From the NCBI RefSeq assembly GCF_053078305.1, contig NZ_CP166879.1: a DNA stretch of 64,000 nt; one strand, given 5' to 3'. The notes under the pieces were generated by a model. The model ran no database searches and was not told the DNA's origin. It saw only the letters and a list, made by a program, of their open reading frames with translations. Shown in pieces: positions 1,811-2,062 of the stretch. The position numbers and the translations under genes were made by a program. Each line of letters starts with the position of its first letter. The first letter of the stretch is position 1.

Positions 1811-1887
1811 TGGCGCGTTGTACTGGATTCGAACCAGTGACCGATTGCTTAGAAGGCAATTGCTCTGTCCGACTGAGCTAACAACGC
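1811..1887 (-). tRNA. tRNA-Arg (anticodon UCU), phage-borne
   Basis: 77-nt cloverleaf read on minus strand: acceptor GCGTTGT/ACAACGC, anticodon loop CTTCTAA, T-loop TTCGAAT, encoded CCA. Confidence 0.85.
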
Positions 1888-1900
1888 ATGATGCTGATAA

Positions 1901-1977
1901 TGGACCGCCATCGGGGACTTGAACCCCGCGCAGCCAGCTTCGAAGGCTGGCGCTCTGTCCCGATGAGCTAATGGCGG
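1901..1977 (-). tRNA. tRNA-Arg (anticodon UCG), phage-borne
   Basis: 77-nt cloverleaf: acceptor CCGCCAT/ATGGCGG, anticodon loop CTTCGAA, T-loop TTCAAGT, encoded CCA. Confidence 0.8.
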
Positions 1978-1986
1978 TATGTGATA

Positions 1987-2062
1987 TGGTGGCCCTTGCT
2001 GGATTTGAACCAGCGACCTGGCGATTATGAGTCGCTCGCTCTCACCACTGAGCTAAAGGGCC
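1987..2062 (-). tRNA. tRNA with CAU anticodon (ileZ-like Ile2 or Met), phage-borne
   Basis: 76-nt cloverleaf: acceptor GGCCCTT/AAGGGCC, anticodon loop CTCATAA, T-loop TTCAAAT, encoded CCA; first of a three-tRNA cluster as in Stx-type lambdoid phages. Confidence 0.85.

Follow-up and report, generated by a model that had tools for sequence, protein, structure and literature searches.

A tRNA trio and its downstream cargo slot in the late regulatory region of a toxin-less Escherichia coli prophage

Here, we describe three adjacent transfer RNA (tRNA) genes, ileZ, argN and argO, in a lambdoid prophage of Escherichia coli. They occupy positions 1,811 to 2,062 of a 64,000-nt stretch of contig NZ_CP166879.1 (NCBI RefSeq assembly GCF_053078305.1); we refer to this whole stretch as “the window.” The trio is very probably a cassette that supplies tRNAs for rare codons, transcribed both from its own promoter, pT, and by Q-antiterminated read-through from the late promoter pR', and serving the phage late genes together with the cargo gene downstream. 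The trio belongs to the late regulatory region of the phage rather than to toxin genes. It matches the codon bias of the whole phage, and it exists without a toxin. It is an already known and common feature of E. coli lambdoid prophages, mostly without a toxin. The only mildly new items are a base-pair map of the slot that holds the Shiga toxin (Stx) genes in Stx2 phages, and a rare methyltransferase allele found in that slot.

E. coli genes avoid the codons AUA, CGA/CGG and AGA/AGG, for which the host has only scarce tRNAs; in the genes of the prophage their use is two to six times higher. By its anticodons, the trio is predicted to read exactly these codons: AUA (once C34 is converted to lysidine), CGA/CGG, and AGA/AGG. 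It has its own candidate promoter, pT, and its own terminator, and also lies within the Q-antiterminated transcription path from the candidate pR'. In the mechanism that we favor, the trio would most likely raise decoding capacity for phage genes and cargo on prophage induction. The slot directly 3' of the argO terminator is occupied by stx2AB in Stx2 phages and by other small genes in some prophages, and in many it is empty. The codon match fits the view, discussed in PMC7946995, that the tRNAs carried by phages make up for codon preferences that differ from those of the host.

The tRNA genes and their place in the late region

Exactly three tRNA genes were found in the window by ARAGORN. All are minus-strand genes, and their coordinates are those given in an earlier note made from the sequence alone. 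The Rfam tRNA model agrees, and the anticodons read in that note are confirmed. From upstream to downstream, the genes are:

1987..2062, minus strand: ileZ, tRNA-Ile2, anticodon CAU (ARAGORN and Rfam tRNA model)
1901..1977, minus strand: argN, tRNA-Arg, anticodon UCG, for CGA/CGG (ARAGORN and Rfam tRNA model)
1811..1887, minus strand: argO, tRNA-Arg, anticodon UCU, for AGA/AGG (ARAGORN and Rfam tRNA model)

The Rfam scores are 72.5 bits (CAU), 58.2 bits (Arg-UCG) and 71.7 bits (Arg-UCU), with a gathering score of 29 and E-values of 6e-14 to 6e-10; all three matches are far above chance. The cloverleaves are intact and the CCA ends are encoded. A 451-bp query spanning the trio matches 291 phage records at ~97% identity, mostly Stx2 phages, and these records name the genes ileZ, argN and argO. 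As the earlier note had proposed, the trio is of the Stx-phage type, being 97% identical to the ileZ-argN-argO genes of many Stx2 phages (97.6% across 378 bp). Identity to phage 933W is 76/76 for ileZ, 75/77 for argN and 75/77 for argO; position 37 of argO is A in the window and G in 933W.

ARAGORN labels the CAU tRNA as Met, a label that we rejected on three grounds. First, window ileZ matches K-12 ileX at 68/76 positions (89%), compared with 54/77 (70%) for metT and metU. Second, its acceptor stem (GGCCCTT.../...AAGGGCC) resembles that of ileX (GGCCCCT.../...AGGGGCC) rather than that of metT (GGCTACG.../...CGTAGCC), and the pairs C4-G69 and C5-G68, read from the sequences, are present as in ileX. 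These two pairs are the cue by which TilS separates tRNA-Ile2 from tRNA-Met for lysidine formation. Third, every homologue of the CAU tRNA is labeled tRNA-Ile by the Prokaryotic Genome Annotation Pipeline (PGAP). Because of its ileX-like body, these two pairs and the PGAP label, the gene is assigned to tRNA-Ile2, predicted to read AUA and not to act as Met. Its C34 would be converted to lysidine by host TilS.

The earlier note considered a UCG anticodon unusual for argN. It is in fact the canonical anticodon, and the surprise was misplaced, since the same anticodon is found in 933W and in every Stx2 phage checked, including Stx2a_1447 and UC4224. The anticodon loop of 933W argN reads CTTCGAA, i.e., a UCG anticodon (the 933W record annotates the gene as “CGG?”), and ARAGORN returns CAT, TCG and TCT, in the same order, for Stx2a_1447, FHI_NMBU_11, UC4224, FDAARGOS_1283 and 933W. 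In window argN, all four stems are Watson-Crick paired, as read from the sequence.

Upstream of the trio, and between it and the cargo slot, the late region is laid out as follows:

4407-4766, in the minus-strand feature order, before Q: RusA
3721..4416, minus strand: Q antiterminator gene (PF06323, Phage_antiter_Q, E=4.7e-84)
3633..3740, minus strand: candidate pR' late promoter, short leader and tR' terminator (terminator scan and sequence reading)
3312..3509, minus strand: 65-aa open reading frame (ORF), from the ORF list; an annotated 198-nt coding sequence (CDS) in relatives
2103..3161, minus strand: methyltransferase 1, 352 aa, N4/N6 type (PF01555, E=5.8e-44; PADLOC MTase_II, E=3e-163)
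2072..2100, minus strand: pT, putative tRNA promoter (TTGCAG and TATTAT, 17 nt apart), into which the 3' end of methyltransferase 1 extends
1797..1778, with a T-run ending at 1773, minus strand: strong rho-independent terminator 3' of argO (terminator scan; 8-bp stem with 6 G-C pairs)

The PGAP homologue of Q is “bacteriophage antitermination protein Q,” and relatives are annotated with the ATG at 4410 as the start. The terminator scan places the tR' hairpin at 3651..3639, followed by T7, directly 3' of Q. A consensus promoter scan reported no clear pR', and the position given above is a candidate from reading the sequence. The earlier note had placed the trio downstream of Q and pR'/tR'. Q and the adjacent terminator are indeed there; pR' stands as a candidate, and the 65-aa ORF and methyltransferase 1 separate Q from the trio. 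The published order for this region is q, pR', qut, tR', tRNA promoter, tRNA-Ile, tRNA-Arg, tRNA-Arg, stx2A (PMC2858043).

The two intervening genes are known from related prophages. The 65-aa ORF, which has zero matches in Pfam or NCBIfam and is followed by a terminator-like hairpin (3325..3308, terminator scan), is named a transcriptional regulator in work on this phage type, in which the q-to-tRNA interval holds a regulator and a methylase (PMC8456039). Methyltransferase 1 also lies upstream of the trio in Stx2a_1447 and UC4224, and is part of the Stx2a “qO111-type” late module (PMC8456039, PMC10462455). The pT sequence is identical to a 933W feature annotated “pT; putative tRNA promoter,” and the argO terminator has a 933W homologue, annotated “terminator upstream of the stx genes.” Over 4499..1773, the segment running from Q to this terminator, the window is 97.8% identical to the UC4224 Stx2a prophage over 2.7 kb and 92.8% identical to the toxin-less FDAARGOS_1283 prophage.

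Codon usage, conservation and frequency of the trio

The codons assigned to the trio are those that the prophage over-uses. Codon frequencies were compared between prophage ORFs at window 1-19.9 kb (5129 codons) and host ORFs at 20-64 kb (13261 codons); frequencies are per 1000 codons, followed by the odds ratio (OR) and the Fisher p value:

ATA: prophage 12.1, host 3.6; OR 3.4; p 3e-10
AGA: prophage 8.6, host 2.0; OR 4.4; p 1e-9
AGG: prophage 6.4, host 1.0; OR 6.6; p 8e-10
CGG: prophage 11.7, host 6.4; OR 1.8; p 5e-4
CGA: prophage 5.1, host 3.8; OR 1.3; p 0.25

The five codons jointly have an OR of 2.7 (p=6e-24). Ranked by prophage/host ratio among all codons, AGG, AGA and ATA are first, second and third, and CGG is fifth. 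The codon-usage link, whose absence the earlier note would have counted against itself, is therefore present. On its left side, the window ends before the late genes of the prophage. In those of the closest relative, FHI_NMBU_11 (97% identical over window 1-4499, a segment that comprises the Q module, the trio, the methylase cassette and the sRNA region, with the late genes lying beyond it), the five codons reach 37.9/1000, compared with 16.8/1000 in the host genes of the window, and CGG alone reaches 21.1/1000 in the head and tail genes. The same five codons make up 48/1000 of the methyltransferase gene downstream of the trio (methyltransferase 2) and 88/1000 of stx2A.

Conservation of the trio was examined by aligning nine loci that represent three Q types and differ in their upstream genes. 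Across these loci, whose flanks diverge, not one base of ileZ varies and argO is nearly invariant. The pT elements TTG and TATTAT are likewise invariant in all nine, even amid unrelated sequence as in MBT-5. Among the three tRNA genes argN is more variable, and selection on it appears to be weaker.

The trio is also frequent, and mostly found apart from toxin genes. Of 5426 complete E. coli genomes, 2577 carry it with 80% or more of its length covered, at up to 13 places per genome; stx2AB is present in 602 and stx1AB in 348 of the same genomes. At least 1627 trio-bearing genomes (63%) lack any stx gene, a lower bound that assumes that no genome carries both toxins. A trio without a toxin, which the earlier note singled out, is thus the usual state, and the trio is a common non-Stx prophage variant, a finding that the same note had named as one that would tell against it. 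That no toxin gene lies in the window was correct: a tblastn search with Stx2A and Stx2B gave a best E value of 0.45, and the slot holds methyltransferase 2 instead. An stx-less “shadow phage” carrying the tRNAs has been described (PMC8456039). Conversely, in the Stx1 phage YYZ-2008 (L017 18953-21122), stx1AB lies ~500 nt after Q and no tRNA gene was found in the 50 kb examined; therefore, the trio is not a general feature of toxin phages. The association of trio and toxin in the phage collection reflects the choice of phages that were sequenced.

Several observations weigh against a rare-codon supply cassette. (i) CGA is not significantly enriched in the prophage, such that only the CGG half of the predicted argN reading matches the bias. 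(ii) The ORFs of the window were called by a greedy longest-ORF rule, and the late-gene figures are those of FHI_NMBU_11. (iii) The consensus promoter scan missed pT, whose −35 element matches at only 3/6 positions. (iv) argN has C1-G72 and the discriminator U73, as does 933W argN, while the K-12 Arg tRNAs compared have G1 and either A73 or G73. (v) Individual genes of the trio have decayed: argN is destroyed in AVS0153, where unrelated sequence stands instead (L014 3577-3676), and has two stem mismatches in FDAARGOS_1283 (L004 8523-8599), and ileZ is degenerate in the metagenome contig L018. Some lineages can thus do without single members of the trio.

The cargo slot and its methyltransferase gene

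The trio is flanked on both sides by methyltransferase genes. The next gene downstream is, as the earlier note said, a methyltransferase gene, and it lies in a cassette with sharp boundaries:

730..1772, minus strand: cargo cassette, 1043 bp, absent from the empty site; contains the methyltransferase 2 CDS
790..1725, minus strand: methyltransferase 2, 311 aa, orphan N6-adenine DNA methyltransferase (PF02384, 22.4 bits; cut-off 20.4)

The left junction is at window 1773, the end of the T-run of the argO terminator, for the methylase cassette, for stx2AB (UC4224, 933W and Stx2a_1447), and for the empty site. The right junction lies in the promoter region of an STnc100-family small RNA (sRNA) gene, at window 729 in the empty site and at 722 in UC4224 and 933W, i.e., ~7 bp apart. 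In FDAARGOS_1283 the slot is empty and the flanks abut, with window 1773 and 729 corresponding to L004 8727 and 8724; in UC4224 and 933W, stx2AB lies between the same flanks. In other strains (SaT040, AVS0153 and MBT-5), the cargo after the trio is DUF3927 plus IraM, or a hypothetical protein plus a TerB pseudogene. Directly 3' of the argO terminator, there is thus a slot whose boundaries are fixed and whose cargo is hypervariable, stx2AB being one occupant among several. As expected of a moron, the cassette is present or absent relative to a collinear empty site and is sharply bounded; an own promoter and terminator and a distinct GC content, which are also expected of a moron, were not found. 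A scan of 730-1772 on the minus strand gave no promoter-like or terminator-like site. The GC content of the cassette (47.9%) is not distinct from that of the prophage part of the window (49.1%); that of the stx2AB cassette is 44.2%.

Three STnc100 copies lie in tandem downstream of the slot. The first is at 483..689 (minus strand, Rfam RF02076, 134.9 bits); a degenerate third copy follows at 269-442 (minus strand, 28.5 bits, sub-threshold), and the second, truncated by the window edge, at 1..203 (minus strand, RF02076, 154.2 bits). A permissive Rfam scan of 1-4600 gave, beyond these, only chance-level matches; AsxR, AgvB or other known sRNAs near the trio were not found. A 2026 preprint links STnc100 to PasD, a prophage sRNA encoded upstream of the nanS-p esterase gene. 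In the window prophage, nanS-p and the lysis genes would fall outside the window; they are seen only in the 97%-identical relative FHI_NMBU_11.

In the translation of methyltransferase 2, motif I (FDGACGSG, approximately residues 44-51) precedes motif IV (NPPF, approximately residues 110-113), and the protein is therefore placed in the N6-adenine class; it also has a weak match to hsdM. Its neighbors are argO and the sRNA gene, with no nuclease or specificity partner, hence the designation as an orphan. A restriction-modification or known defense context was considered and dropped, as PADLOC returned weak generic methylase matches and there is no adjacent partner gene. Methylase activity is predicted from these features. 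No recognizable promoter lies between the argO terminator and the ATG, so methyltransferase 2 is probably expressed mainly by Q-dependent read-through, as is stx2.

The start of the gene is annotated differently in a relative. In FHI_NMBU_11, PGAP takes as start codon a GTG within the stem of the argO terminator, for a protein of 331 aa (L002 8710, corresponding to window 1773-1790). The equivalent position in the window is GCG, so the only start of this ORF is the ATG at 1725, which gives 311 aa. Read this way, the 331-aa annotation is probably an over-extension.

The methylase cassette is rare. It is found in 11 of the 5426 complete E. coli genomes, ten of which cover at least 80% of a 4.5-kb query from Q to the sRNA gene and so share the context. 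Homologues of methyltransferase 2 in Streptococcus, Mannheimia and Fusobacterium phages (PF02384, N-6 DNA methylase) are 40-44% identical over 68-84% of the length. Among 50,697 phage records, none has a protein with at least 60% identity, and the 10 matches in total come from phages of these three genera. The methyltransferase of another contig, L019, is 61% identical and has no upstream tRNA. On contig L018 (935-2251), the trio and cassette are 81% identical to those of the window, with 78% protein identity of the methyltransferase, and lie behind a DUF1133-type Q. The arrangement is therefore not a one-off, and its presence with a different Q suggests that it is old and maintained.

It is possible, and we propose it tentatively, that the contents of the slot are alternative alleles. 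Methyltransferase 2 would then take the place of stx2AB as an anti-defense allele, switched on, like Shiga toxin, only by Q antitermination upon induction and methylating the DNA of progeny phage and perhaps that of the dying host. The methylated DNA would thereby evade restriction or other DNA-targeting defenses when it enters the next host.

A different history for the cassette is that the stx2AB genes of an ancestral Stx2a-converting phage were swapped for it by homologous recombination in the flanks, leaving the trio as the footprint of a lost toxin. The near-identity of the Q-argO segment to that of the UC4224 Stx2a prophage and the coincidence of the junctions fit such a swap. Several of the 11 cassette genomes also have names that suggest surveillance of Shiga-toxin E. 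coli (e.g., STEC2018-553), a connection by name only. The direction of exchange cannot be told from the sequence, however, and L018, with its 81% identity and other Q type, indicates that the methylase-after-trio arrangement is old and not a recent replacement. In addition, most E. coli copies of the trio were never linked to stx, and tblastn found no stx remnant in the window. We therefore consider a swap unlikely.

Much less probable still is that the tRNAs serve in counter-defense, replacing host tRNA-Arg and tRNA-Ile cut by anticodon nucleases or toxins. Phage tRNAs can bypass tRNA-cleaving defenses, colicin D targets Arg tRNAs, and argN and argO have diverged from the host Arg tRNAs to 66-74% identity (66% for argN compared with K-12 argX and argV; 57/77 for argO compared with K-12 argU). 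However, the codons served are those most over-used by the prophage, as codon supply predicts and counter-defense does not. Nor was a tRNA-targeting system identified nearby, and it is not obvious how ileZ, whose 89% identity to ileX extends to the anticodon stem-loop, would evade a nuclease acting on ileX. Finally, that the trio is a functionless relic, kept as a conserved homology arm for exchange of cargo, would account for the reuse of one junction by at least three cargos and for the decay of single tRNAs in some lineages, but is hardly credible given the invariance of ileZ and near-invariance of argO amid diverging flanks, the intact cloverleaves with encoded CCA ends and high covariance-model scores, the promoter elements kept in unrelated surroundings (MBT-5), and the match to codon usage.

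The trio should not be taken as a sign that a toxin locus is, or once was, there. The map of the stx slot and the record of a methylase in it may interest those who work on gain and loss of cargo by Stx phages and on orphan methylases of phages.

Surroundings and comparison with known systems

The insertion site of the prophage adjoins yccA, and the integrase gene (18720-19739) is followed by the host chromosome. The chromosomal part of the window (19900-64000, yccA to pepN region) is 99.2% identical to the closest of the 5426 complete E. coli genomes, and the Q-tRNA module finds its best full-length match at 97.2% identity. Judged by these identities, the lineage of the strain is not represented in the complete-genome set. 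A PyrD leader lies in the host part at 46804-46877.

Four further features of the prophage deserve mention. A hok/sok type I toxin-antitoxin system lies at 6691-7015 on the minus strand (Hok ORF at 6691-6846, PF01848, E=3e-23; sok RNA at 6841-7015, 117.7 bits). Among the nin-region genes, 6225-6569 (minus strand) encodes a secreted bacterial OB-fold (BOF) protein of 114 aa (PF04076, E=3e-33), a probable cargo gene. In the immunity region, 13057-13721 (minus strand) encodes HigB, a toxin (PF09907, E=5e-33), next to a helix-turn-helix antitoxin. Lastly, matches to isrK (14718-14794) and to the C4 antisense RNA (14819-14906) lie within the 5' part of an ORF with Ash and Rha domains (14667-15518, plus strand); because these RNAs overlap the annotated ORF, the protein may start further downstream than the ORF does.

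Among the rare-codon tRNA genes of the host chromosome (ileX/ileY and argU in K-12), K-12 ileX shares C4-G69 and C5-G68 with ileZ along with 89% identity, and K-12 argU shares the UCU anticodon and A20 with argO. The K-12 Arg tRNAs retrieved have UCU, ACG and CCG anticodons; K-12 is not known to have a tRNA-Arg(UCG). The closest relatives of methyltransferase 2 in kind are the small stand-alone N6-adenine methylases of temperate phages, namely Streptococcus Javan phages, Mannheimia phage vB_MhS_587AP2 and Fusobacterium phage FNU_1P, which are ~280-330 aa in length and likewise carry PF02384. The placement of methyltransferase 2 in the stx slot is particular to this lineage of E. coli prophages.

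Three groups of phages resemble the window prophage in the late region. The first is 933W (NC_000924), which has the same tRNA order and anticodons, an identical pT, and a homologous argO terminator. In 933W, however, the trio lies ~440 nt after Q933, a different Q type, with no methyltransferase between, and stx2AB follows the terminator; in the window, the 65-aa ORF and the 352-aa methylase precede the trio and the methylase cassette follows it. The second comprises “qO111-type” Stx2a prophages such as UC4224 and Stx2a_1447, along with the 45-kb group described previously (PMC8456039). Here, the late module, from Q through the 65-aa ORF, the methylase and the trio to the terminator, is collinear with that of the window and 97-98% identical, and an STnc100-type sRNA lies downstream of the cargo, as in the window. 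The cargo itself differs, being stx2AB (~1335 bp) in the UC4224 type and the 1043-bp cassette in the window, whose prophage adjoins yccA. The third consists of the toxin-less prophages CE10, FDAARGOS_1283, SaT040 and MBT-5 and the “shadow phage,” in which, as in the window, the trio lies downstream of Q without stx. In these prophages the slot has no cargo or contains other small genes (one of the two gene pairs named above, with IraM or TerB), whereas in the window it holds the methylase found in 11 of 5426 genomes.

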